A stretch of 61,729 nt of DNA, counting the filler, from Stramenopiles sp. TOSAG23-6 (Eukaryota): NCBI GenBank assembly GCA_900128565.1. It is 2 parts of 2 records of this genome, joined end to end, with 100 filler letters (N's around TTAATTAATTAA, not from the genome) between each part and the next. Parts side by side here need not be neighbours in the genome. Positions count along the whole stretch, not along the records: positions 30,987 to 61,729 come from LT635963.1; 1 more part is not named here. One strand, written 5' to 3'. A model generated the notes under the pieces. It was given only the letters and a program-made list of their open reading frames with translations. It did no database searches and was not told the origin of the DNA. Below, piece by piece: positions 7,801 to 61,729 of this stretch. The position numbers and the translations under genes are program-made. Position 1 is the stretch's first letter. The number at the start of each line of letters is the position of its first letter.

Positions 7801-10800
7801 TCAAATAGTAGCGATACGGAGGATGAACATGATGAGCGTAAAATANAAAATANAAAAAAACAGNAAAAATNANTCCAGAGTATGCGGTAAATGACAATAT
7901 ATATATTCACCATGATGTGCATGATAAGTTCTTAGCCGCTACGATTACAAAAGTTAACGATAATTGGTTTCAATGTACAATAAATGATGGGGGGAAATTG
8001 TATAATGTTCATGAGGAAGATTATCGTACAAAATGGATCTTCCCAGAGAAAGTAAATGATAAGATATTAGTACATCATGATATACATGATAAATTTGTAG
8101 CTGCGACAATTACAAAAGTTAAAGACAGTTGGTTTCAGTGTACAATAGATGAAGGAGGGAAATTATATAATGTTCATACAGAAGATTTTGGTAGAAAATG
8201 GATATATCCCGAGAAAACAGTGTTACTTCCAGAAACACTGAAAGTAAAACAGAAACATCATAGTGTTCAGTTTACATTATTTGTATCTAGAAGTTTAGCT
8301 AATCTCGTTGCTGATGGTATTGATTGCTTAGGCAAATTAAACCCACGACAGCGAACAGCTGCATTTACTCGTCTTCGCCAAGCAGCTTTACTTTTGCTTG
8401 CACAATTAGAAAAATGTGCTGAAAGAAGACGGTCAATGGATCTAAAAGTTCCTTCTCATAAAGTTGGTCCGTATGCAACAGTTGTTCAACTACATCAGCG
8501 TGTTCAGCAACTTGAAGGGTTGGTGAAGCATGGCCCAGCATTAGAAAAAGACATGGGCTTAGCGTGGGGTCCAAAACTAAAGGAAAAAGAGGGCGAAGAA
8601 GATCATCCTGGTGACGCTTTAGCTGATTTACAAGAAAACTATGATGAGTTGCAGAAATCATATAAAGAAATGAAAGCAAAGTTGGATGCTCAAAAAATGA
8701 AAAGAAGAGCTTCTATGAATGCTCTACAAGCAAAACTAGATGCTGCAAATGAGGTAGCCGATGCAGCAATTCTTGCTAATAAAGATAGTGCAATAGAACT
8801 CAAACAAAATGCTGAAAGAATTGAAGAGATGAAAGAAGAATTAGAAAAACGACATGAAATTGCAGACCGTATTGGCGAGCAAGCTATTGGTGTTGTGAAA
8901 GCCAAAGGAGAACTTGCTCAGGATATGTTACATAATGGTTCTCGGGAAGCTCCATCCAAAGACTTGCAATCCAAAGGACAATTTTTATGTTGGCGTACTC
9001 AACTTTGGTGGTATTGCGAGCATCGGTTGGCTGCAATGGGTATGATGCGCAACTTATTGTTAGTTGCAAAAACTCGCCGTCGTCGACGTATTTTATTCAA
9101 AGTTCAGGTTCTTGGATTATTTAAACGCATAGCTAATGTTCGACGACAAAGAAGTAGGGCAAAGAAAGTATTATCATTAGGTATAATACCAGCATTACTT
9201 CGTCGACGAAGCCAGTCGCAGCTAATGTTGAAAATGTGGATCCTGGGTTCAACAGGTTCTTTGATTAATAAACGAAATGAGTTACACGTTGGAGTGACTT
9301 TAGGTTTATGTGGAGCACTTGAATATCTACAGGAGGAAAGAGATAGATTCGGATCCAGTAGGAAACGAGGTCGTGGTTCTTCTAGTAAATTAAAAAGGAG
9401 AAAAACGAAGTACGGAATAGTTGTACCAAAGACTAAAGTGCGCATTGGGCATTCTATTGCAGATGAAGGCCTGTGGAAAATGATGACACATTTGAAGGAA
9501 ACATTGTCTACGGGTGTAAACACCGATGAAGGAGAAATTCATTTTAATCGAGATAAAAATGGTTCTATTATCAAAAAGAAGGACCACACAGCGGATGAAC
9601 TTGTATATGATGTATTTGATGATTTTGAAAATGTTTTTACTTCTCGACCGATTCCAAAACATAAAAAGAAGAAAAAAAAACACGGTTTAGAAGGGCAGAA
9701 ATTCAAGTTTGAATTATCAAAGATGACTGCTCAATTCTCCACCAAAATTTCAGTTTCTTCGAAGAAGATTGAAAAATCATTTCCTAATTTTGACGATTTG
9801 TTCAAAGCTGTAGGAGTCTTCGATGTTGCTAAAGTAAGCGACGAAGATATCACAATGGTTAATAATCTTTTTGGGCCTGACGGAGATGGCGCAGACTTAA
9901 AAACTTGTATTTCTGAGTGTTTCCATATTCTTTCAGTCATTCGGGACCACGCTGCTGGTGTACACAAAGAAGAGAAAGGTGATACCGGGCGCCCAATAAG
10001 GAAAGGAAGAGCAGGAGAAGTAGACAAAATAGAAGAATTATTAAGGCAAAGACGAGAGAAACGATCCGGTTCAAAGAAAAAACAAACTATCAAAAAAGCG
10101 GTATGTTTATTTAAATCACTTGCTGATGTCAAGAATATGAAGGAGTATATTGCGAGAGTTATTGCACATCCTGCTATTGACATTGATAAATCGGCAAAAT
10201 TTCTATGTAATTTAATGGCAAGCTTAGATCCAGAAGATAAACTTGTGAATCCTTCGGAGAGATTGCCCATCTTTCACGAGAAGATTTCGTTGATGATGTC
10301 TTGTTATGAAATGCCTCGAATGGTGAAAGATATCGGGGATAAACTTGCGACTCTTCGAAAAGTAACGGAAGAGGTTCTCACATCCAAAAATCTACAAGAA
10401 TTTTTATGTGTTGTTTGTAAACTGGTCAATTCAATGAAAAAATGCAAGAAAGAAATGCCTCTTAATGCGATTGACGTCTCGGAATTTGATTTAGTGTTCT
10501 TTCAATCTCTCACTCAACATCCATACAATGAGAAGAAACCTCTTTGTTATTATGCTATTCATAAAATATCTCACGCACCTAAACTGGAGCATATTCTTAA
10601 TTTTCCTCGAGAGTTGTCTAATCTTGAGGAAATGTGCAAGATAGGATTTCATGTATCTCTTGATCTTCTCTTTCGTCAACTTAAAAGCGCTATTGACACA
10701 GCAAAAGCCCAATTCAAGGTATTTTCTAAGCATGGTGATGAATCATGGAAAGTTCATCTTGAAGGAATTGTAAATGACATGGAAACACATCGCAAGGATC

Positions 10801-19268: not shown

Positions 19269-21270
19269 TCAATCTATATCCTTATTAACGACTTTGTCGT
19301 AGAGCATTGGAAATCGATTCTTTGCATCATACTTTGCTTTTAATCGGTCATATTCAACACCATTAAAATGATTATGTACAAATTTACGTGAATACAAAAC
19401 ATCTGAATAAAAAGTCTTTCCGCCACCGTGTTCTTCAATAAGTGCATCGATTTGTCGATTATGCCAGTATTTTTCTCCCTTGTGAGCAGGGTTTCGGGGA
19501 ACTGAGCCAAATGCAGCAACATCCATCATCAAACCTTTCTGCTTCGGCTCCGCAACACATCGTGGTGGAGGCCATAATGTAGCATCGTCTGCAAGTTCGA
19601 GATGACTTCCAAATGTTGCCGGGCATATATTGTTAAAAAATATGTTTAGAAAAAAAAATCGTTAGGTACATATGAAAAAAAAATTAAATTCGAAATGGGT
19701 AAAAAAATAAAACAAACATATCCAAAAGGGCAACTTAGCATGCCCACCATCCAAAAGCTGTTGTATAAATTTGGAGGTTGTCTTGAGGGGTACACCCATA
19801 TCCTGAATGACAATTTCATCTTGATCCACTGGAAAAATCCATTTAGAAAAAATGTATTGTAAAATTTTTTTTTTTTTTTTTTTTTTTGGTTTAAAAAAAT
19901 CATCAGGTACAAAATTTTCATACAGAAAAAAAAAATTGGAATGAATGATGAAAACGTACATATTTAATATCCAATTCTTCATATATCGTAACTGTAAACT
20001 AAGTGACCATAAAACAGTGGATCGTAATACTCGACGTCCGAGTAACCAACGTACCCAAGGTATTCCCAAACGTATTGTGAAAAAATATTTTTTTTTTTTT
20101 TACGAAAAAAAAAATTGTTAGGTACAAAATTTTCTGCCAAAAAAAAAAAATTCGAAATTCAATTTTGAAAATGTACAAATGGAATTCCTAATGTACCCCA
20201 GAACATATCGGTGTCCCATCGCCAAAGATAATCATATATGCTCATACAGAAAACTCTGCTAGTATCACAAGCCAATATTACATCTAAAAAACGACCATCG
20301 TCAGGTAAGTCCTTTGGAAAAATATTCTAAAACATTTCAAATTCGTTAGGTACAAAATTTGGTACGAAAAAAAATCGAACTTGAAAAAAATAAAACAGAT
20401 AGTGAAAATGTACAATTTTACCAGAGGCATTTTCTTAAGCTTATTAGGGCAATTATTAAAAGCCACTTGGATGACCACACCTTCATTGGCTGATAGTACT
20501 AGTCCTTCAATGTAGTCAACTGATTTGATCTGAGGATTATGAGATTTGATGGTTGTAGAGATATGCGAACACTTTGTTGCGAGTCGACCGAGCTCCTCCA
20601 CTGCATCATTCAATGCCATCCGCCGAACAAAAACTGTCACAAAGGGTGAAATTTTCATTAGTGATAGCTTGACAGAAAGTGCATATCCAAGAGTACCATA
20701 ACTATGCGCGAAGCCAGAGAAAAGATCAGCGTTTTCGCCGTGCCTGTTACACAACAACACGCGTCCATCAGAAAGTAAGACTTCGAATTCAACTACCGTA
20801 TTATGAACGAAGCCATATCGCCAACTGGAACTTTCAATGGCGACACCCGAAAGTGCGCCGCCTACAGTAATGCTGTGAAGTATGAAAGTAGTGAAAGTGT
20901 TTTTAAAATGAATAATAACGTGAACAGTAGTTTGATAGGGGGAAGTTTAGTATTGCTTTTTAATAAACATTTCTTACGTATCCAACTCGGGCACAACCTT
21001 TGGTGCAAATCCCCTTGGCAACAGGAACTCGGTCAACATTTTAAATGGTGTTTTCCCACCTACTGTGACTGTACTCGCTTTGTTGTCAAAGTTGATGATA
21101 CCCACAAAAGCATTTAGATTTAGTTTTCCACCTGGAGTACGCTGGGCAGATTGCGCAAAGATCGTCGAGACATTTCCAGTTTGATCTAACCACATTAATT
21201 GTGTGCTAGCCTGCATCTGTTTCTGCGCTGTGTCTACCGCGAGCATGTAAGTATTCAGACCGAGCTTCAT
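19269..21270 (-). CDS. FAD-linked oxidoreductase, Delta24-sterol reductase (DHCR24)-like, 6 exons
   Basis: Motifs restored by removing 5 introns: VVPELDT|ITVGG, HSYGTLGY, DYLWRWDTDMFW, IVIQDMGVP, PFWI|CP, KYDAKNRFPMLYDKV. Confidence 0.85.
19625..19717 (-). mobile_element. Introner-like GT-AT intron (93 nt)
   Basis: ATAT|GTTTGT...TACCTAAC...ACAATATAT|GC restores PFWICP. Confidence 0.85.
19852..19959 (-). mobile_element. Introner-like GT-AT intron (108 nt, in-frame, no stop)
   Basis: AT|GTACGT...TACCTGAT...CAATACAT|T. Confidence 0.75.
20070..20176 (-). mobile_element. Introner-like GT-GT intron (107 nt)
   Basis: CCATTT|GTACAT...TACCTAAC...CAATACGT|TTG gives GIPF|LGIPW. Confidence 0.8.
20307..20413 (-). 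mobile_element. Introner-like GT-TT intron (107 nt)
   Basis: AAATT|GTACAT...TACCTAAC...CCAAAGGACTT|ACCT. The upstream AG is 5 nt short and would frameshift. Confidence 0.75.
20873..20977 (-). other. Canonical GT-AG intron (105 nt)
   Basis: AC|GTAAGA...TTCACAG|C restores PELDTITVGG. Confidence 0.9.
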
Positions 21271-30886: not shown

Positions 30887-30986
30887 NNNNNNNNNNNNNN
30901 NNNNNNNNNNNNNNNNNNNNNNNNNNNNNNTTAATTAATTAANNNNNNNNNNNNNNNNNNNNNNNNNNNNNNNNNNNNNNNNNNNN
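30887..30986. other. Artificial contig-joining spacer (N-TTAATTAATTAA-N, stops in all six frames)
   Basis: Symmetric N runs around TTAATTAATTAA at 30931-30942. Confidence 0.9.
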
Positions 30987-31087
30987 TTGTGAAAAAATAT
31001 TTCAAAAAAAAAACTTAAATTTGTTAGGTACAAAATTTCGTACAAAACAAAATTCGATTTTTTTGTTAAAAAAAAAATAAAACATAC
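30987..31087 (-). mobile_element. Introner-like intron (3' end in gap)
   Basis: AT|GTATGT...TACCTAAC...TTTTCACAA. Confidence 0.8.
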
Positions 31088-34000
31088 ATATTAAATGGAC
31101 ATAACCAAGGCGAGCCTATATGATGGTCGCCTAATGCAGCTGCAACGGATAATGCGGAGCAGGAGTAAAACATATCCACGTATTTTGGAAAAATATTTGA
31201 AAAAAAAAATCATTAGGTACAAAATTTCGTACGAAAAAAAATTCGAAGTTGAAAAAAAATAAAACGTACACTTCCAAATGTTTGTTAATATGATGATGAT
31301 GGAGTCTTTCATACAAGGTTGTCAGATGACTTAAACTCCGAAATAAAGTATGTATTTTGGAAAAATATTTGAAAAAAAAATCGTTAGGTATGAAATTTCG
31401 TATGAAAACAAATTCGATTTTTTTGTTAAAAAAAAAAATAAAAATATTTGAAAAAAAAATCGTTAGGTACAACATTTCGTATGAAAAAAAAATTAAATTA
31501 GAAATTCATATAAAACGTACATTATCTTCATCCCATTCTTTACTTCTATTCAGTGTAATATGTTCAACTATAAAACGAAAACGCCGAAAATCTCTAGTCA
31601 GAATTTCCAAAACTGTTTTACTACATACATTGCGTTTACAATGTTTTTTGGAAAAATATTTCAAAAAAAATCTAAACACAATTGTTAGGTACAAAATTTT
31701 TTTACCAAAAAAAAAAATAAATTTGAAATTGAAAAAAAATAAAACATACATGCTGTTTGCTATTTTGATTGCTACCATCCTTACCATCACAAAATGAATT
31801 AGAATTCTGAGCTTGATGAAGGATTCCATTTGAATTATTTTGTCTACCATTGTCATAATTAAAAAGAGATTTTGGTTCAATTTCTGAACAAACTGAGCTG
31901 ATATTATCATAAGTATTCATACTTAATTTTGCAATCATGACTAACGGAAATTGTAATAATGAATCCGATGTATTTTGGAAAAATATTTCAAAAAAAATCT
32001 AAAACATTTTGTTAGGTACAAAATTTCGTACGAAAAAAAAATGTAGACAAAAAATTGAAAAAAAATAAAACATACATGCTCCAGAATCACTTATATGAGA
32101 ATCTTGTACCATTTCTTCCGGCATAAAAATAACTCGCCAATCCGTTAATAGCAAGGTACCAATTTTTAGTTCGTTAGGAGTAGGGTCAGGACAAGAACCC
32201 AATATCGCAAGAATATGTATTGTGAAAAAATATTTTGTGAAAAAAATCGTTAGGTACGGAATTTCGTACGAAAAAAAAACTTGAATTTGAAATTCATTAT
32301 GAAATTGTACATGAGGAATAACCAGTTCTGGGAGTTCTGTGGCTTTGGGTGGAAGAGAAAGAACTCTAGCCTGGGAAGCACGCTGATCTTTTGATGCATC
32401 AAGTAGTAACTTCACACGGCGTTTTCTGAAAAAGTCATTACGAAATTTTGATGCATACGTATTGCAAAAAAATATTGCAAAACAAAAAAATCGTTAGGTA
32501 CAAAATTTCGTACGAAAAAAATAAATTCGAAATTGAAAAAAAAAACGTACACTGTGTACATATAAAATGATCCCATGCAATGCGAAGCGACATCAACTCA
32601 CCGAAATTAAAAAACGTTTTCATTGCAAATTCTGCAACAGCATTTTGTAATTGAGTCCGTCTCGATGTATTTTGGAAAAATATTTCAAAAAAAAAAAATT
32701 AATTTTTGTTAGGTACAAAATTTCGTACGAAAAAAAATTCGATTTTTTGTTTAAAAAAAAAGATAAAACATACATGCTGCTAAAGATCTTGCACTGAACG
32801 GTTGGCGTGATTCCAACATTCCGCCCTCTCCTTTTTTTAATTCCATCTCTTCAATCGCTTTTACAAATATATTTTGGAAAAATATTTCAAAATTTACTAT
32901 AAAAAAATTTGTTAGGTACAAAATTTTCAAAAAAAAAAAATCAATTTTTTGTTAAAAAAAAAAAATAAAACATACATAATTCAAAACTTCCTGGGGAAAA
33001 AATGGGTTTTTCTCCTTCAGTATTTTTAGTATTTTTAGTATTTTTAGTATTTTTAGTATTTTTAGATTGTTCACTCACCCACTTGCGAAGAACCTTTCGA
33101 GACCATCGAGATAGTTGGGCACCTGAAAGGTTTACAATTGTATTTTCATTACTAGTTGTAGAAAAATGAAAACCACGTTTTGCCGCTGCAGCTACGAAAC
33201 GCCGAGTGACGTCATCAACTGCTTCTAGATTGGATCCAAGTCGAGTTTTTTCCACATTTGCTAAATTTTCAGCTCTTATATCAGCATCTATTTGAGCAAC
33301 TTCTGCTTCTTTTTTTGCTGCATCTAACAAATCAATGTGTATTTTGGAAAAATATTTCAAAAAAAATCTTAAAAAATTGTTAGGTACAAAATTTCCTATG
33401 GAAAAATAAATTCAATTTCAAATTTAAAAAAAAAAAAAAAACATACATTTGTTTTTTCTAGATCCAAACACTTTTCAATATATAATTTATCACTTGCAGA
33501 ATCGTTAGGGTTAGGATTTTGGAGGCTAAAAGGAAGCGCCAATCTACCTTCGCTTCGAATATTTCGTATGAATTGTGGAAAAATATTTCAAAAAAATCTA
33601 AAAACATTTGTTAGGTACAAAATTTCCTATGAAAAAATAAATTCGAAATTGAAAAAAAATAAAACATACATTGATTCGTGAACAATATTTTCACTCGGAG
33701 ATATCGAACAAATGGCCTCAACCAAAATTTCTCCAGTCACATATAATGAAAAGAAATATTTCCAAAAATTGATTTTTTTGTTAGGTACGAAATGTTCTAT
33801 GAAAAACAAACTTAAAATTCATGATAAATAAAAACGAATATAATAAAAACGAATATAATAAAAACGAATAGTATATAAAAACTCAAAAAAAAATCTTTTT
33901 TGTTTTTTTTGTTTTTTTTTGTTTTTTTTTGTTTAGGTACGAACTTTCCTATGAAAAAAAATAATAAATGAAAACATACATGCTTTGAACGTTTCGTCCG

Positions 34001-34792
34001 TTTGCCTAAGGGAAGCCATTCAGAACAGATGGTGCACGCAGATAGTGAACATATACTCATGTATTGTGAAAAAATATTTCAAAAAAAAATTAATTTTTGT
34101 TAGGTACAAAATTTCGTACGAAAACAAATTCAAAATTGAAAAAAAAATAAAACATACATAGCAGCTTTCCCAAGAAATTTTCCAGTGCCAATTATAGATC
34201 GTTTGTGAAAAACTTCGACTTCAATAAAAGAGTGTAACCCTTGAGACAACGGAAATACAAACATCATGTCCCAACTAGGGTTAATACCCCCCTTCTTCTC
34301 ACCCTCAATCTTATGGTCCAGTGTACATGTATTGTGAATTTTTTTTTTATAAAATTTGTTAGGTACAAAATTTCGTACAAAAAAAACAAAAATTTGAAAT
34401 TGATAAAACGTACAGGCTTTTCCGCTACCAACACGTACTTCACAATATGGATTTAATGTTCCAACAGTTCCTTTGGAAGTCAAGTTTCGGGCGCTAGAAA
34501 TTTTTACAACGATAAAAGGACCAAGGTCTTGCTGTTTGTGCCGAAGTGAAGACAACTCAAAGAACTCCTTTAATCCTCCTTGCGATCTATAAAGTCGAAC
34601 TGCAAGAGCTGGACGCTTTCTACACGATGCACGGGAATTAACTATAGGTACTATGTCTTCTACTGTAGGTGTATCTTGACCACCACCTTGATTTATTACA
34701 GTCTTCTTAGAATGAAAGTCACTATCAGACGAAGTTTCAACAGAAGGACAGGCATTTCGTTTTTTTCGTGAAAATGGGTTCCAACTCTTCAT
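31088..34792 (-). CDS. C2-domain + PH/GRAM-like protein (possibly myotubularin-related), at least 14 exons, 3'-truncated
   Basis: C2 (VKISSARNL..LNPYCEVRVG..GGINPSWD..IEVEVFH..FLGKA); GRAM-like (GTLLLTDWRVIF..QFPLVMIAKL). One continuous frame after removing 13 complete introner introns. Confidence 0.7.
31178..31269 (-). mobile_element. Introner-like GT-GT intron (92 nt)
   Basis: GAAGT|GTACGT...AAAATACGT|GGAT; GT duplicated. Confidence 0.8.
31350..31520 (-). mobile_element. Composite introner GT-AT intron (171 nt, two branch modules)
   Basis: AAT|GTACGT...two TACCTAAC...AAAATACAT|ACT. Confidence 0.75.
31641..31749 (-). mobile_element. Introner-like GT-AT intron (109 nt)
   Basis: CAT|GTATGT...CCAAAAAACAT|TGT. 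Confidence 0.8.
31968..32075 (-). mobile_element. Introner-like GT-AT intron (108 nt)
   Basis: GCAT|GTATGT...AAAATACAT|CG. Confidence 0.85.
32215..32310 (-). mobile_element. Introner-like GT-AT intron (96 nt, in-frame)
   Basis: CAT|GTACAA...CAATACAT|ATT. Confidence 0.75.
32457..32550 (-). mobile_element. Introner-like GT-GT intron (94 nt)
   Basis: CAGT|GTACGT...CAATACGT|ATGCA; GT duplicated. Confidence 0.8.
32665..32773 (-). mobile_element. Introner-like GT-AT intron (109 nt)
   Basis: GCAT|GTATGT...AAAATACAT|CG. Confidence 0.85.
32867..32975 (-). mobile_element. Introner-like GT-AT intron (109 nt)
   Basis: TTAT|GTATGT...AAAATATAT|TTG. Confidence 0.85.
33337..33446 (-). mobile_element. Introner-like GT-AC intron (110 nt)
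   Basis: AAT|GTATGT...AAAATACAC|ATTGAT; required by frame. Confidence 0.7.
33568..33669 (-). mobile_element. Introner-like GT-AT intron (102 nt)
   Basis: CAAT|GTATGT...CACAATTCAT|ACGA. Confidence 0.8.
33741..33979 (-). mobile_element. Composite introner GT-AT intron (239 nt, two branch modules, internal 16-nt tandem repeat)
   Basis: CAT|GTATGT...two GTACCTAA...CATTATAT|GTG. Confidence 0.7.
34059..34157 (-). mobile_element. Introner-like GT-AT intron (99 nt)
   Basis: GCTAT|GTATGT...CAATACAT|GAGT. Confidence 0.85.
34327..34413 (-). mobile_element. Introner-like GT-AT intron (87 nt, in-frame)
   Basis: GCCT|GTACGT...CAATACAT|GTACA; interrupts the C2 domain. Confidence 0.75.
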
Positions 34793-42000: not shown

Positions 42001-45000
42001 AAGTTGAATAGAACTTTGGCAAAAGTAACCAGCTTTACATTTTCCTTCCTTTTCGGCATCTTTTGTATCTCGCTCAATCATTCTACAAATTTTTCTTTCA
42101 CCCTCTGAGTCTTGTACTTTGTGGGTATATTCAAGGCATGCTAACCTGTTTTGTTGGTGGCATATTTCACTCAGACCTGCTTGTGCTTCACAGGATGCGA
42201 CCCAAATTCTTTCCGTAACCGACCTTTTAAAAACACCGTTGCAAGAATTTTCTGTGGTTTTACTACTATCATTGCATGTGTTGTTAGTATAATCCCATAC
42301 TCTATCAAAATCTTTCATAAAAGGCCCACCTTTGCAATCTGTCTCTGTAGTTTCATTAGGGTCATTACAAGAAAATACCTTTGTGCAGTGAGTTGGACAC
42401 AATACATTTCCTTCTACAATAGTACTGGGACAATCCATAACTTCACATAAACCGGAACAAAAAGCACCTGCTTGACATACATCGGAATCATGAGTTTGTG
42501 CTCGATTAGGACAGAATCTGCCATCTCTACATGGTCTACAAGTAGGAGTGTGAATTAATGCGCTGAATTTTCCAGCTTCACATTCTTCACACTTGAAACT
42601 ACCATCATCCTTTTGTGTATAATGCTCACCTGGACCACATGTTAAAGCCAACTTTGCTTCACTAAAATCACCTTTACCTTTATCATTTTCGGCTTGAACG
42701 CGTACAGAAATATTTGTCGTTCTGTTGACAGTCATAGTATGAACTACATTAAAAATACGCTCTGCGCCAGAAGAACAACCCCCAACATTTGTTTCGCCAG
42801 ATGCACCAACATTGAAATTGAACCCAGATATCATAGCCCCTCCATTTTCCGGGCACGTATACTTTACTTCAATGGTCAGTCGTGTTGATGAGTCAGTTGT
42901 CGTGGCTGATTTTATAAAAGCTCTCAATATTGTTGGTGTTTTAGGAACAGTTGCGTCTAACGCTACATTGAATTCTGCCGTTAAATCTGTCCTTCCTAGA
43001 CTATTTTCACCCCATGCAGTTATTTTGGCACCTCTAGTTCCCTCTTCAAGTCTAGTGACTGCAATTGATGACCCTGTCTCTACACTAAGCCACAACTTGT
43101 ATTCACTTGATGATGTACACGAACAACTAGAATTGTTCCAGCTACATGCCGAATCACTATTGCAATCAGACTCCTCCAAAGAAGTGCAGCTACATGGCTT
43201 ATCCTCAAGAGTTGGGTTAAATGTGCCCGTTGTAACATCTCCGCTGCGAGAAGTAGTAATCATGGCTAACTCCCCCATCCGTTTTCCAGATAAGAATTGT
43301 ACAAGTAAGTTTTTATGGTCATCATTTGTGTCTGGATCAATATACGCACCTAATTCAAACGCATCGAGTTCAGTGTCAATAAGTGTTCCACTCAAATCAC
43401 CATTGATAAATGTGTGAAATATAACATACTTGTCAGATTCGTCCTTTCCAAATGCCTTACCATCTTCGTTCACTCCATACAAGGCTGGCAACTCGTACAC
43501 AACTATAGTTCCAGCAGCAGCAATATATTGAATTTGAGGTTTTGTGTATTTACCCACACGCCCATCCGGTTCCCAGAGAGGTACAGATGCAAGAACACAC
43601 ACTTGATTATCTGCATCATACGTAAATATAATTCCTGCATCAACACATTTGGAAATTTTTTCTTCAATATCTAAATCTTCTTCGACATCTCCGCATTCAC
43701 CGGCATTGATAGCAAATAGTGAACATTCCTCTTTACAATGATCTTCATTGTAGTCGCCATCGTGTTCTAAATAACAACGACGCTGATTCCATACATTGTG
43801 AAAAAATATTTCAAAACAAAATCGTTAGGTACGAAATTTCGTACAAAAATTAAATTCGTAATTGAAAAAAAAATAAAACAAACATGGTTTCTCTTCTCCA
43901 ACATTTAGCGTATGTGTAATAGATTCTTGAGATGATCCCCAACATACATTATAGTTCCTATCTATTGGTGCAATCTTGCAAGAGTTTCCTAAAACACTTA
44001 AACAATTGGACACATTCTGATTTGGACATTTATCTGAACACACGTCATCGACCCATTCACAAGCACTCCCTATATCAAGACAATCACTACTGTTTAGGTG
44101 TGCATAACAAGGAATATGATATTTTCTTATACATTGTGGTGAAATATTAATCAACCCAATATCGTTACTAGAAAATTCAACTTGTTGTGTCATTCCTGGG
44201 GCTTCAATACCGAAAATAGTATAACTTATGGTAGTGTCCTCAATATCGGAAATTATTGGGGCATCCCACGTAACGGTAATTGTACTGCGCTCTGCGGTTG
44301 TGCTGCTGGTGGTTATTTTTGAAAAATATAGAATACTGTCAACAGTAAACTTAAACTTCCAACCAACGTAGTGATGCAGCGTAGGATTGAATAGGAAATT
44401 TTCTGGTGCATCAAGTATTGTAGACATGCGGTTTGCGCATCCCGATATTTTAGGGCATATTTCTTTACTCATCGTACTACACTGACAATTATTTACATCA
44501 TATGTGTTGCATTCACATGTTTCATCATTGGAATTATATGTACAATTGTCGTCACTTGAGCATTCTGAGACACTTTTGCTCTCACAGGCACATGTTGTTG
44601 AGCATTTACACGATTCATCCCAATGACAACCACCAGTGGTGTCACATTCAGATTCATCATATTGTTCACAAGTACAACTGCAATTACCAAAACAACGACT
44701 TTCAATATTTGAAAGTGATCCTGAAATACCTGTGACAGCTTTGTCACACGGCGCAGTAGTTACTTTGACATATGGCCTTGGCGAAGTTTCTTCAAAATAG
44801 TCAATAATGAAATGCATTTTATGTGTTTTAGTAGGAGAAAGAATTTTGTCCTGTTTTGACCAACCAAACATATCATCAATCATTGGAACCCTGGTGATCT
44901 GTAAAGGGGTATCTTCTGAAATAGCATTATAAAATTCGTTATCATTCTCTAAAAGTTTATAGCAAACAGACACGTGGTCATCTTCGTCTTTATTTTCGCT

Positions 45001-54000: not shown

Positions 54001-56009
54001 AGGATTTGCAATTTCACACCACGTAATATCACCATTATGAAAACATACATTAAGTGTCATTCCAGTACCTTCGCCACCTTTTGTTGCTACACCTTGAAAA
54101 CATTCATTTTGGACGTCATATCTTCCCTCATTATCACCATTATCATCCCGACAAGAAATCAAAGGTACAAATTCTAATTCAGGATTTTCATCATTTTCAG
54201 GGCGGATTTCATTTAAGAGAAATTGTTTTCTTGGAAATGATGAACCTGCAATGTAGGATTCAAATTTACACCTACTCGATTGTTCGTCGGAGTCTAAAAT
54301 AGATTGTTCAATTGCTGAAGATTCAGTTACATAAATCTCAGTACTTAAAATGTTTTGATCACTCCGATAATGCATTGTATTATCAGGCATTATTGAAATT
54401 TGTGCACTTGTTGGAGTAGTCTCTTCCTGTAAAGTGTTAAAAGTTGCCAAAATCTCTGGACACATTCCAACAATTTGAATCGGGGGCCAATTGCCGTCAT
54501 GGTAGCTCAAACTACTAACACTCGGATTTAGAAAGTCAATATTACACGCATGACAGCTATGACTATCATGCTGGGCATTGCACGAATCAAAGGCACAACT
54601 TCTTGGGCACCTCCCAGACTCAAGAAAATCGAGGGAGAAATAAAATTCAACATCGTCGTCTTCAATGTTTGCGTAAAATTCCATATTTGAAGAAGGATTT
54701 GAATTCATTGAGCAGATACTAGTGAACCGAATAACGATAACAAGCGTCTGATTTTTATTAACACTTTCAGATAAAGTGATTGTGAGTTTATCTGAGGAGT
54801 CTACAGTGATACATATATTGTGAAAAAATATCTTTTTGTAAAATTTGTTAGGTACGAAATTTCGTACAAAAAAAAAATTCGAAATTAAAAAAAATAAAAC
54901 ATACTCTCCGCAATATTTGTTTCGTGTGGATAGTTTCCGCGGACATCCAGAATACTGCAGTTCTCAATATAGTCTGGAAATATCCTATTTGCAGAATTGC
55001 CATTTATATCATGTCTTATGAAGATTTTGTCACCAGCAGATAAACTTTGACTCGTTTCAAACTCGGCGTAGAAAACATTTGGTACGCGACCAATTACTTG
55101 ATTATCAAATTTTACTCGAAAGTTGCCATTATTACCACCATTACCATTATTACCACCATTACCATTATTACCACCATTACCATAACCATCACTATCATCA
55201 TTACCACCACCACCTGCACCTCCATCATTATAATCATTACCTCCACCACCTGCAGCACCTCCATTATCATTGACTTCACATACACCAGTTGATCCATTAT
55301 TGTGATTATATCCCACACACTTTGGCTTGTCACTAGGGCACTGGCNCTGTGAGCTAACAGAGGAAGGATAAGACTGTCCACAGCAAGGTGAACTGGATTC
55401 GAAGTCTGCCTGGCAACCTTCATCATCTGCACCTCCACCACCTCCATTATTATTGACTTCACAAGCACCCCACGTATGTTGCGAAGAACTTGAACTTTGA
55501 ACATACCCCGTACACTTTGGCTTGTCAGTAGGACACTGGTACTGTGAGGGAACATTAGAAGGAATAGACTGTCCACAGCAAGGTGAACTTGAGGAGTAGT
55601 CAGCCATACAATCTTGATTGCAAGCACCCCACGTGAATTCATTTGCATTTAAACTATAAACATACCCCATACACTTTGGCTTGTCAGTAGGACACCGGTA
55701 CTGTGAGGAAACAGTCTGAGGAACAGACTGTCCACAGCAAGGTGTAGTTGAGGAGTAGTCAGCCATACAACCATTATTATTGACTTCACAAGCACCCAAC
55801 GTTTCTTGCAAAGAAGTTCTAACATATCCCACACACTTTGGCTTGTTAGAAGGACACCGTTTCCCTGAGGGAACATACTGAGGATCAGTCTGTCCACAGC
55901 AAGGTGAACTTGAGCCGTAGTCAGCCTTGCAACCGACCATTGCATCAACCGCAACTAAATGAATTAAGCAAAACAATACATATATTCTTCTGAACATGTG
56001 ATTCGACAT
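36059..56009 (-). CDS. Giant (~6,500 aa) Cys-rich cell-surface receptor-like protein: signal peptide, Cys repeats, PAN/PSI/TSP1/LamG/FN3-like modules, GCC2-GCC3-type CPxGxYC repeats, EF-hand pair, multi-TM domain, WW. Contains 3 introner introns and five +1 frameshifts.
   Basis: Eight consecutive minus-strand ORFs joinable by introns or single-base deletions in homopolymers. MSNHMFRRIYVLFCLIHLVAVDA; DIDGNGVVGLDEL/DTDHNGAISFTEW; YGSLFEQYERQYWWFELIEMLRK. Confidence 0.7.
43791..43883 (-). mobile_element. Introner-like GT-AT intron (93 nt)
   Basis: CCAT|GTTTGT...GTACGAAATTTCGTACCTAAC...CAATGTAT|GG. Confidence 0.85.
52834..52926 (-). mobile_element. Diverged introner-like GT-AT intron (93 nt, in-frame)
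   Basis: TGT|GTATGT...GTATCTAAT...CAATACAT|GAT. Confidence 0.75.
54813..54904 (-). mobile_element. Introner-like GT-AT intron (92 nt)
   Basis: GAGA|GTATGT...CAATATAT|GTATC; joins ORFs 54885-56069 and 50377-54708. Confidence 0.85.
55290..55935 (-). repeat. Four tandem Cys-rich coding repeats (CxADYxSSSPCCGQ..CPxDKPKCxGY..GAC)
   Basis: Near-identical DNA and protein repeats. Confidence 0.9.
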
Positions 56010-57758: not shown

Positions 57759-59724
57759 ATGAAGATTCTATCACTACTAACACTATTTGTTTCAGCATCT
57801 TTTGTATACGGAGGCGATCCTGTGCCTGTTCACGATGAAGGCTTTAAGCGTTTTCAAGGAAAAATTAAAGGAGCGCCCTTTGAGCTTATGCTTCTGACAC
57901 AGCATGTTCCCACCACATCAGGCGTCGATGCAGCTCTAGTCAAGAGTGAGAACGGACGTGTGATGATGTTTATTCCATATTTGGAGAATCTGCATTATAA
58001 ACTTACAGGGCTTGACCTTATCGTCACGTCATCAAATATTGTAAGTGTTTATGCCGCAAAGGGACCCATGGGAAGGTTGGAAGAGTTCGAGATAACTTTT
58101 TCTTCGACTGAAATAGCCAAAAGCTTTGTAACTGCTGTAGAAGCTGTATTTAATCCGACCACTGCAATTACCAAAAGTGAATCAAGTGCATTTCATATTC
58201 CAACAAGCCGTCAAGAATCTAAAGCTCCCGGTTATGCTTCAATCAATGAATCGGCACAGACTAACAACCAGCAGATTAAACCACATCTTCAAGATCTTCA
58301 AGTGCTCACAGCTAAAGACATAGACACTGGTTTTGAGCGACCTAAATTGACGAAAGAATCTTCAGCTGAGCTCCCCGGTAAGATTCATCTAATAAAAGAC
58401 AAATCACTTCAAGATTTGTATGAGTCAGATTCAACTTCAAGAGGAACTGCGTGGCAAACACGTGCAGGTGTGGCGGACTTCAGGACCAAGGAAGAAACCA
58501 AATCTTTTCTTGAGTTAGTAAAAGAAGGCAAACAACGTTATGATGACGTTGCGGACGATAAACACTCAGACCAGTACTATGAAGCTAACTATACCCACGA
58601 TGAATATCACTGTTATGAACAGATTGTAAAAGATGTTCCAGATCGAGTGGCTGCAACTGATCAAGAAAAAGAAGCACTGACAAGAATATTATGTGCTTAT
58701 TCCGTGTTTGATCAACGACTCCGGTTTTGTCAGGGAATGGATAATATTGCACTTACGCTTCTCAGACTCCCAATATCAGGAAACACAGATGAGGGGAAAC
58801 AAGATGGAGGGAAAACAAGCAAAATTTCTGAAGAGGATGCATTTTGGTTATTAGCAACAATATATCATGATAAAAAGTACAAATTATCAAATTATGCACG
58901 TATTGACGATGGTGGAACAGTAGCAGAAACTGTCGCAGAGGCTGTGGAAAATTTGATGGAGTTACAGGAAGGTAATGATGCATTACAGAAGATGCTTGAG
59001 TTTCCCAAAGCCATGAACAATTTGACTTTTTTTGTGTACAGTTTGACACATAAAATTTTCCAAATGTTTGAAGGGTTTGCAGTTAAGCTTGACATCTATG
59101 ACATGTTTATTGAAAGTGGGTGGCCAGGTTTAGTAAGAGCCATCGTTGCTCTTGTTAATTTTGCAAGGTAAGTGAAAATATATCATATTTTATTTTATGG
59201 AAATCTCGAAATCACAAATTTATATATACTAACTAATCAAAATTTCTATTTTTACCACATAATTCAACAGTACTTTGCTTTTGGAAAAATTTGGAGCAGC
59301 AAACAACTGGAAAATTGGTGAAATGGAAAATGATGCACAAGAAATATTTGAAGCGTTGCCCAAAACGTGTACACAGAAAAGATTTCGAGAGAGCCTTAAA
59401 GCGATTAAGCCATTTGAAGAATTTGATACAATTTATTTAAGAAAGTTGCATGATATTTTTTATGAATCGAAGTCACCACGAAAAATGTCAACAACTCAGA
59501 GACGTAGAAAATATCAAAAAGCTCGAATGTCTCAAATGCGGGGGCATTCACTGCCTGCAATGCCAAGAGAGCCAATGGAAGGCATGAACGTATCAGTACC
59601 GCGGCGATCCAAAAGCGCCAACGGCAGAGGAAGATCGATATCGCCAAAACCTATGTCAAGAGAGGCAGACACCGGGTCACTTTCATCATTTTTGTCTTTC
59701 TTCAAAAAATCTTCCGGAGAATAG
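57759..59724 (+). CDS. Rab-GAP TBC-domain protein with predicted N-terminal signal peptide, 2 exons
   Basis: QIVKDVPDR, LTRILCAYS, FCQGMDNIA, EEDAFWLL. Confidence 0.75.
59168..59270 (+). other. Canonical GT-AG intron (103 nt)
   Basis: AG|GTAAGT...TACTAAC...CAACAG|T. Confidence 0.9.
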
Positions 59725-59864: not shown

Positions 59865-61674
59865 TTACAATTTTCTTATTTCTTTTACAACAAGACGAAT
59901 AAGGCATGCAGAAGCCATTAAACAGCAAAACATCAAAAAGTAAAATACATAATTCCATCCGAAATACGTTGAAATTGCACCAATAGCAACGCCTTGGATT
60001 GCAGCACCTATTGAACCTGTACCATCTACTATACCAGTTACGGTAGCCATTAATTTACCTTTTGAATAGTTTGAATGTTCATAATCTATGTTTGCAGATT
60101 CTGAATTGCTCAGAGAGGGATGACAACCGAGATCAGCTGAAACTGCTGTAGTAATGTATTTTGGAAAAATATTTCAATTGGTTTTTCTTTAGGTACAAAA
60201 TTTCGTACGAAAAATAAATGTGAAATTGAAAAAAAAAAATAAAACATACATGAGTGCGTAAGGACCATTAATTAATACTCCAACAAATAGCATGAGGAAT
60301 ACATTTGGTAGCAACTTATCGCCAATCTCAATAGATATATATCTGTATGTAAGTAATCCAGGGATTGAAAGTATCAGAAATCCAAAAGAGACACAAGCAG
60401 GTTTACGTGTCATATCTCGTAAAAGTCCAGCAAGGATACTCCCAAATATGCCACCAATATCAACAAAAGTACACAGATATCCCGCATGTACAACGGAAAA
60501 ACCATTATGCACTAAATAATATGGTGTCCAAAAAATAAAAGTATACGCAACTAATTTAACAAATAACAGACATACAGAAAATTCAATTACTCCAGGGATG
60601 TGTTTTGGAAAAATATTTCAAAAAAAAAATTTTCAATTTGTTAGGTACAAAATTCCGTACGAAAAAAAAAACGAATTTGAAAAAAAATAAAACATACATA
60701 CACAATGCTTTGTAAAAATTAGACAATGACTGTTTACGCTTTGGGTTTTGTTTCATATTGTCTGCGGATAACACTTGACTTTCATTATTTCTGAAAGATG
60801 ACAAATTTGGATGTACATTATTTGACACATTTTCTGGATTTGTCTGTAAACGAACTTGCCATACCCCGCTTTCTCGAGTGCTTACACTATGTAGTTGTCC
60901 AGTACTTGACATCAAATCAGAGTCGTTTAATTCTTCTTCATTGAGTCGTTGAGAATACATGTATTTTGGAAAAATATTTCAAAAAAAAATCGTTAGGTAC
61001 AAAATTTATGNAAAAAAANAANTTCGAAACTGAAAAAAAAATAAAACATACATATTCCTAATGCCAGTTTCAGTTGATGATATTATTTGATCTCCGATAT
61101 TTTCTTGAGAAATGACATCAAGATCACCTGTTGGAAATCCAAGTTTCGAAGGATATGGAATGATAAAAATAAAGACAGTTATTGTAGATATAAACATTAC
61201 AACACCCGCAATAACAAAAGCCATTGGCCATGTATTTTGGAAAAATATTTTTAAAAAAAGTAGTTAGGTACAAAATTTCGTACGAAAAAAACCTTCGAAT
61301 TTGAAAAAAAATAAAACATACATGAAACATTGTTTTTTCCTAATTCACCAGTCCATAGAGGGAAGCTTAAAGCTGCAGTACCCAATATACTCCCAATGAT
61401 ATTACCAGTACTAGTGTGAGCATTCCAAATACCCATGACTAGACCTCTTTCATGTTTTCCATACCAATTACCAACGATTGATACAACAGCAGGCCAACCT
61501 GAAGACTGAAAAATACATGTCCGAGAAAAAATATGTCAATCACAAAAAATATTATTAGAAACGGATACAGAATGTTTTGAAAATAAGAAAAACAAATGGA
61601 TTTCAGTCTGAAGAAAGTACCTTGTACTGCATAGATAGAAATAAAGTAAATCAGAGAGTGTTCTTTGAACCAGT
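59865..61674 (-). CDS. MFS sugar-phosphate exchanger (SLC37A/GlpT family), 5'-truncated
   Basis: QGIFQSSGWP, MGIWNAHTSTGNIIG, ALCIPGVIEFS, NGPYALITTAVSADLG, ATVTGIVDGTGSIGAA. Confidence 0.9.
60154..60249 (-). mobile_element. Introner-like GT-AT intron (96 nt)
   Basis: CTCAT|GTATGT...AAAATACAT|TACT restores ALITTAVSADLG. Confidence 0.9.
60598..60697 (-). mobile_element. Introner-like GT-AT intron (100 nt)
   Basis: TGTAT|GTATGT...AAAACACAT|CCCT restores ALCIPGV. Confidence 0.9.
60959..61051 (-). mobile_element. Introner-like GT-AT intron (93 nt)
   Basis: AATAT|GTATGT...AAAATACAT|GTAT. Confidence 0.8.
61230..61321 (-). mobile_element. Introner-like GT-AT intron (92 nt)
   Basis: TCAT|GTATGT...GTACCTAAC...AAAATACAT|GG. 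Confidence 0.85.
61517..61620 (-). other. Non-family (or highly diverged) GT-AT intron (104 nt)
   Basis: CAAG|GTACTT...CTCGGACAT|GTATTTTTCAG restores QGIFQSSGWP. Confidence 0.7.
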
Positions 61675-61729
61675 ATGTATTTTGGAAAAATATTTCAAAA
61701 AAAAATCTTAAAAAATTTGTTAGGTACAA
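61675..61729 (-). mobile_element. Introner-like intron, 3' part (truncated by window edge)
   Basis: GTACCTAAC...TTTTTCCAAAATACAT|ACTGG. Confidence 0.8.

Follow-up and report, generated by a model that had tools for sequence, protein, structure and literature searches.

The SLC37 gene and its 104-nt intron

The window analysed here is a 61,729 nucleotide (nt) stretch of the Stramenopiles sp. TOSAG23-6 genome assembly (GCA_900128565.1), consisting of two parts joined by 100 filler letters. At its end, on the minus strand, is a gene of the SLC37/OPA type, interrupted at 61620-61517 by a 104-nt intron that appears to end in CAT rather than in AG. Other introns of the gene are copies of a repeated, transposon-like intron element, referred to below as the family. 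The window DNA is AT-rich and eukaryotic, with a GC content of 0.29-0.43 and very long open exons. Animal-type genes occur across it (WW/SAM, Maestro-HEAT, RabGAP-TBC, SH3, protein kinase, adenosine deaminase and C2), and an Rfam scan of the window gave no matches. The locus was detected in two DNA runs of one organism and is partly present in seawater metagenomes and polyA metatranscriptomes from several studies.

The host gene extends from the window end (61729) as far as a stop near 59866. The exon at 61516-61322 has 29 database homologues and resembles solved SLC37/GlpT-type transporters, including rice Os08g0156600 (expect value, E, 9e-18), human SLC37A2 (6e-15) and Escherichia coli GlpT (0.03). 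This likeness, which includes the GxxQxxGWP segment, identifies the product as an SLC37/OPA sugar-phosphate exchanger. Six exons form a single open frame, using junctions of the ...AT|GTATG...ACAT| type throughout. Their product is identical at 194 of 399 positions to its closest relative, P0001, a predicted protein of 681 amino acids (aa); the alignment has gaps only in a variable loop and is gap-free at the conserved junctions. A search for near-identical transcript-derived protein gave seven fragment matches (34-111 aa), the best at 77% identity and none from the host organism. Among metagenome contigs there are 19 SLC37-like loci at 38-80% identity, with no close relative among them. The features of the gene, all on the minus strand, are as follows.

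61675-61729: 3' part of a family intron truncated where the window ends (profile positions 57-103, E 1.5e-7)
61621-61674: upstream exon of 54 nt between that family intron and the 104-nt intron; it encodes (x)WFKEHSLIYFISIYAVQ and ends ...GTACAAG, its last base opening a Gly codon
61672-61621: exon 1 of the gene model, by open-frame join
61517-61620: the 104-nt intron in its GT..AT register, GTACTT...CGGACAT, phase 1, the best of 2167 in-frame pairs
61618-61620: GTA at the intron start, repeated as GTA at 61514-61516, the start of the next exon
61554-61558: CTAAT, the sole CTRAY branch-point-like motif of the intron, assigned by motif and not by mapping
61517-61519: CAT, a YAY triplet, the proposed 3' end of the intron from sequence and homology scoring
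61516-61322: exon 2, by open-frame join; the downstream exon, (G)IFQSSGWPAVVSIVGNWYGKHERGLVMGIWNAHTSTGN..., with SLC37-type homology and an RNA contig over 61346-61496
61506-61508: CAG, 11 nt into the downstream exon, the first AG past the candidate branch A
61230-61321: adjacent family intron of 92 nt, GTATG...ATACAT, the ends pairing as CAUGUAU/AUACAUG in the fold (E 1.6e-21; RNA-spliced)
61229-61052: exon 3, by open-frame join
60958-60698: exon 4, by open-frame join
60597-60250: exon 5, by open-frame join
60153-59866: exon 6, by open-frame join

The translation of the 54-nt exon aligns without gaps to residues 342-359 of P0001 and aligns also to several of the metagenome loci. This exon ends CAAG and the intron ends GGACAT, as the initial annotation had read them. 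The donor, AAG|GTA, is U1-compatible. The candidate branch A of CTAAT is 38 nt from the CAT end, compared with 34-43 nt for the CTAAC of family copies and 34-38 nt between TACTAAC and AG in a canonical intron of the window's RabGAP-TBC gene. The stretch before the intron end is 63% pyrimidine and has a T-rich tract, and the CAT at 61519-61517 agrees with the published rule that the last three intron bases are YAY. The downstream exon begins GTATTTTTCAG (in a longer stretch, GTATTTTTCAGTCTTCAGGTTGGCC). Folding revealed no significant structure or end pairing in the intron (z +1.45), and splicing driven by structure was therefore rejected. U12-type introns begin with an RTATCCTT donor and have their TTCCTTAAC branch site 10-20 nt before the 3' end. 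The intron starts GTACTT and the branch consensus is absent from it at up to one mismatch, and a U12-type identity was rejected. In the simplest model, this would be an ordinary U2-type intron in all but its last base. Within it, GTATCCGTTT at 61559-61568 (minus) resembles a U12-type donor; its use would add 18 residues and the resemblance is probably due to chance.

Every in-frame, stop-free donor and acceptor pair nearby was scored against a hidden Markov model of 14 full-length SLC37 homologues, giving the 2167 pairs. Exact removal of the 104 nt is at the top of these with 154.9 bits and gives QGIFQSSGWP, the product proposed in the initial annotation for the GT-AT register. Joining 61621 to 61516 generates ...YAVQGIFQSSGWPAVV, which is gap-free against ...YSLNGAFQSIGWPAVV of P0001. 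At this junction the Gly is present in 14 of the 14 homologues and the Gln in 13, and the position between Gly and Phe is taken by A, L, V, G or I, never by T. The 3' AG with an in-frame conserved product that characterises a canonical GT-AG intron is lacking here. As a control, the same scan on an intron of the FAD-oxidoreductase gene picked canonical GT..AG as the top pair.

Four registers (GT..AT, TA..TG, AC..GT and CT..TA) share the top score and generate an identical mRNA, because GTA is present at both the intron start and the start of the next exon. The likeness of the intron start to the next exon extends over approximately 12 nt (GTACTTTCTTCAG against GTATTTTTCAG). That the intron is without a terminal duplication, as had been claimed, is therefore true in the upstream direction only. 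Likewise, the register is fixed against an upstream shift of the AT-AC type, but nine registers over two mRNAs, encoding Ile or Thr, are essentially tied. Homology strongly favours an acceptor other than AG and a product that retains G-x-F-Q. Between the registers, GT..AT is probably the most sensible, since it has the U1-like AAG|GTA donor, an end in CAT like that of the family, and Ile rather than the unseen Thr.

The repeated intron element

The family element is approximately 92-110 nt long, has paired ends and carries its own CTAAC branch motif. A profile made from 18 copies has 125 matches in the window at E up to 100, with 36 of these at E<1e-4. Wherever genes could be assigned, all 36 are on the host-gene strand. 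Examples of the copies are as follows.

61230-61321, 60959-61051, 60598-60697, 60154-60249, 54813-54904, 43791-43883 and a cluster at 30986-34417: family copies, from profile matches

For 26 of the 36 copies both ends fall in the profile, from which the end positions were extrapolated. Most of these 26 begin with GT (22), and their 3' ends are AT (20), GT (3), TT (2) or AC (1). The last two exon bases are repeated as the last two intron bases in 19, CAT or TAT is found upstream of the donor in 17, and the terminal triplet is YAY in 21.

Three polyA seawater metatranscriptome runs (X4, X6 and X8) and one DNA run were compared with 61023-61729. A 156-nt polyA-RNA contig (X8 record 25) joins 61228 to 61321, the adjacent 92-nt family intron having been precisely removed; CATG is duplicated at the ends of this intron and five registers fit the join. 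A second RNA contig, X4 record 13, spans 61346-61496 of the downstream exon. In the DNA run, one 402-nt contig crosses the 104-nt intron at a flat depth of 24.4 with no differences from the window. Over the family bins, depths add up to 1e5-4e6. The 104-nt intron is therefore single-copy and the family massively repeated.

The absence of the family body from the 104-nt intron, noted in the initial annotation, was borne out. The core GTACGAAATTTTGTACCTAAC has 23 matches in the window at up to three mismatches, against none expected, and none of the 23 is in this intron. The family profile gives it E=39 (-0.5 bits), against E<1e-4 for the 36 copies. The intron does not have the terminal inverted repeat that pairs CAUGUAU with AUACAUG in the family copy, and no second copy of it was found in the window. 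By core and profile, by inverted ends and by copy number, it is thus outside the family. Global alignments to four family copies gave z values of 1.2-3.7 against mononucleotide shuffles, which are a weak control. A short ATATTTTT(T)C stretch is common to the intron and the 3' part of the family, a likeness that is not significant. Descent of the intron from a decayed family copy is not demonstrable from these sequences. A literature search for the element core returned only unrelated work.

As an intron with neither family body nor inverted terminal repeat, present in a single copy, is best read as GT...CAT, AT acceptors would not be confined to recognisable copies of the element. The initial annotation had suggested as much, and on the sequence its suggestion holds.

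Some family copies have features of their own. The copy at 20070-20176 (minus) has GT..GT (3' end CGT) or TG..CG as its best homology register, and the exon ends flanking it are near-repeats, with LGIP encoded twice. It seems from this copy that further 3' ends besides AT, such as GT and TT, may be tolerated. Around residues 246-256 of P0001, the string IFFFFFNFE resembles what the 5' end of an intron element of this kind would encode, suggesting that the related genome may carry similar elements and that the gene predictor may have read through one. Runs of N or scattered N at about 30890-30985, 61011-61022 and 7846-7872 mark the window as a draft assembly, and one such stretch cuts a family copy.

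Likeness to known splicing systems

The non-canonical U2-type introns of the Fritillariidae are said, in texts citing the work, to have been described by Henriet et al. 2019. These animals provide the closest comparison for the window, made here with Soo et al. 2026 (PMC13326754) and a review (PMC11282704). Less than 10% of the introns of Fritillaria borealis are GT/AG (PMC13326754), the commonest first dinucleotide in this species is AG (PMC13326754, PMC11282704) and its top intron class is AG/AC (PMC13326754). AT is the commonest 3' splice site, at 44% in F. pellucida and 34% in F. borealis, and the last three intron bases are almost always YAY, a triplet that is often also present before the 5' splice site (PMC13326754). 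The same source reports that the U12 spliceosome has been lost in larvaceans, and that U2AF subunits are duplicated or chimeric, some paralogues preferring a 3' AU probe (PMC13326754). The rare GT-AG introns are at conserved positions, while the non-canonical ones have species-specific positions, inverted repeats and target duplications (PMC11282704).

The 104-nt intron shares with the introns described there the proposed 3' AT, with its YAY terminal triplet (CAT), and the U-rich tract. The window as a whole fits the same picture, with many transposon-like GT...AT introns bearing YAY signatures beside unique canonical introns; in the Fritillariidae also, a GT-AG minority is found beside many transposon-like introns with inverted ends and a short flanking duplication. 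Unlike the odd introns of the Fritillariidae, the 104-nt intron belongs to no repeat family and lacks both an inverted repeat and a flank duplication like that of the family copies. It has AAG upstream and a GT donor, where YAY is often upstream in the Fritillariidae and the main F. borealis classes start with AG. Their hosts are marine planktonic animals with compact genomes, a likeness that is drawn to the present host too. A fritillariid larvacean is the most likely host, given the animal genes, the presence of the locus in seawater RNA and DNA, and the signature of the element, all of which are circumstantial.

Introners, or MITE-derived introns (from miniature inverted-repeat transposable elements), were reportedly described by Huff et al. 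2016 and Gozashti et al. 2022. The neighbouring introns of the SLC37 gene are elements of this kind, sense-oriented copies with paired ends and a branch motif. The 104-nt intron differs in being single-copy and unmatched by the family profile, and could at most be a decayed copy. U12-type and U2-type AT-AC introns share with it the lack of GT-AG ends; the family copies can formally be read as AT..AC, and GTATCCGTTT is internal to the intron. The AT-AC-type register is, however, disfavoured by score and no TTCCTTAAC-like branch site is present in the intron. The nonconventional introns of Euglena also have borders other than GT-AG. Those introns depend on pairing of the intron ends, which is not significant in the 104-nt intron.

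The initial annotation had raised AT acceptors as an old or general property of the splicing machinery. As a general property they are not new, being already published for the Fritillariidae (PMC13326754). The present case is a fresh example of a published type of splicing. What is gained is one well-defined example and no new principle, the phenomenon itself having been published for Fritillaria.

Readings of the junction and other features of the window

It is likely that 61517-61620 (minus) is a unique, non-repetitive, phase-1 spliceosomal intron of 104 nt, spliced as GT...CAT by a relaxed U2-type machinery. It would interrupt the exchanger gene within the Gly codon of its conserved G-x-F-Q-S-x-G-W-P motif. 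Recognition would use the U1-compatible donor, the CTAAT branch 38 nt from the end and the T-rich tract, with the end being CAT and not YAG. The CAG 11 nt further on, the first AG past the presumed branch site, would be skipped. The U2-type spliceosome of the host lineage would accept 3' AT, U12 having been lost and U2AF duplicated or changed. With such a relaxed spliceosome, the 104-nt intron would be removed by the same machinery as the transposon-like GT...AT introns of the window.

The strongest competitor is removal of 104 nt shifted by 4-8 nt downstream, in five registers (TT..AT, TT..TT, TC..TT and CT..TT) that also have an acceptor other than AG and a donor other than GT. These give QGTFQSSGWP and score 154.5 bits, against 154.9 for GT..AT. 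The TT..AT register (61616-61513) would have YAY both before the donor (TAC) and as the last triplet (TAT), as in the published rule (PMC13326754). The donors of the shifted registers lack U1 complementarity, however, 22 of the 26 family copies start with GT in the register extrapolated from the profile, and the Thr that would result is unseen at that position in the 14 homologues. We regard a shift of this kind as rather unlikely.

The argument of the initial annotation for a fixed register overlooked an AG..AG pair at 61609-61506 that uses the canonical CAG. It is in frame, retains the protein length and gives QGTFFSSGWP at 149.6 bits. Its acceptor would be the first AG past the candidate branch point, and F. 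borealis introns start with AG, the dinucleotide of its donor, more often than with any other (PMC13326754, PMC11282704). It puts Phe in place of the Gln kept in 13 of the 14 homologues, at a cost of 5.3 bits, and GT starts both canonical introns of the window as well as the 22 family copies. This pair is improbable as the true junction.

Splicing by canonical GT-AG is equally improbable. It would require a product short of six residues, a frame-shifted transcript that is non-functional or targeted by nonsense-mediated decay, or a G-to-T base-call error at 61517. Introns of this kind do exist in the same window, which is a draft containing N's. The pair at 61620-61499 scores 130.1 bits and deletes IFQSSG, as the initial annotation stated, but its AG is not the only one nearby in frame, since the pair at 61627-61506 deletes VQGIFQ and scores 130.7 bits. 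These, the best of the GT-AG pairs, lose 24 bits relative to the 104-nt removal, and the G-x-F-Q motif is removed. If the GT at 61620 is paired with the nearest CAG (61506-61508), 115 nt are lost and the resulting frame shift leads to a stop. All five downstream exons are open and conserved, which argues against a dead gene. Against a base-call error, the 402-nt DNA contig has no differences across the site at its depth of 24.4, though it may be source data for the assembly.

Corresponding to the AT-AC reading of the family copies, a register that lies 2 nt further upstream (AG..AC or GG..CA) is very unlikely: it reaches 151.0 bits and F. borealis has AG/AC as its top class (PMC13326754), but its QCIFQ product, as predicted in the initial annotation for a shifted register, has Cys for the Gly that is invariant in the 14 homologues and in all 17 metagenome loci covering the site, and neither its upstream triplet (ACA) nor its terminal triplet (GAC) is YAY.

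Several observations weigh against splicing as GT...CAT. By homology, eight other registers are within 0.4 bits of GT..AT, the AG..AC register is 3.9 bits worse and AG..AG, with its canonical CAG, 5.3 bits worse. In the GT..AT register the triplet directly upstream of the 5' splice site is AAG and not YAY; YAY would be present at both ends in the TT..AT register. The X4, X6 and X8 RNA depth is zero over 61503-61646, which includes the junction, and is uninformative either way. The DNA run that agrees on the T at 61517 may be the assembly's own source. The comparison with the Fritillariidae takes intron use here from protein homology and the identity of the host from circumstantial evidence. 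Both unique canonical introns of the window use AG despite an ACAT or CAT just upstream.

The first of these two, at 59168-59270 (plus), is a 103-nt intron of the RabGAP-TBC gene with the structure GTAAGT...TACTAAC...CAG. Open reading frame (ORF) logic assigns its CAG acceptor, because only that acceptor continues into the downstream ORF of 153 codons. An ACAT 10 nt upstream of the CAG is apparently unused, the mirror image of the SLC37 case. The second, a 105-nt GT-AG intron at 20873-20977 (minus) in a gene for an FAD-binding oxidoreductase (DHCR24-like), was assigned by homology, its junction PELDT|ITVGG being an exact match to the related-species protein P0039. AT is therefore not the rule for all introns outside the family.

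If GT...CAT splicing is confirmed at the RNA level, the locus would offer an intron present once, ordinary in its donor, branch motif and T-rich tract, in which CAT is the 3' end and a CAG 11 nt downstream is bypassed. This would be a compact natural test of 3' site choice by a relaxed U2-type spliceosome with a changed U2AF, away from the inverted repeats of transposons. It would also bear on two published proposals for the origin of odd splice sites, erosion and import by introners.

Of the 19 SLC37-like metagenome loci, 17 cover the site and none has an intron there, a comparison in which two loci (L013 and L014) look bacterial and some may be transcript-derived. Split matches place introns elsewhere in L010, L015 and L018, and the matches of L016 and L017 have a common end point. 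In green-algal gene fragments an exon starts approximately three codons upstream of the Gly, a different position. An origin by tandem duplication was rejected: when the intron was locally aligned with exon 1, with exon 2 and with the B+A order that such a duplication predicts, each score fell short of the average for 500 dinucleotide shuffles (z -0.5 to -0.9). The intron could have been an ancestral, canonical GT-AG intron whose last G drifted to T once the spliceosome stopped requiring AG, with the downstream CAG ignored, but we consider this history doubtful. If true, it would be direct evidence of splice-site erosion in pre-existing introns, as distinct from the import of odd ends by transposons, and would make the intron a clean natural substrate, present in one copy, for the preference of CAT over a nearby CAG.

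Two other genes of the window have unusual features. The FAD-oxidoreductase gene (19272-21270, minus) has mostly metagenomic or bacterial proteins annotated as 'FAD/FMN-containing dehydrogenase' as its closest relatives, P0039 being the sole top match from the eukaryote set, and nevertheless contains four family introns and one canonical intron. At 36059-56081 (minus) there is a run of very long ORFs, of up to 1528 codons, that is probably one giant gene. Pfam identified only a weak PAN domain in this region, and ORF logic alone is ambiguous for its junctions. Within the region, Cys-rich repeats of about 160 nt occupy 55267-55940 and a 9-nt repeat rich in Gly and Asn occupies 55123-55263, and from the sequence the product is possibly a lineage-specific secreted protein.

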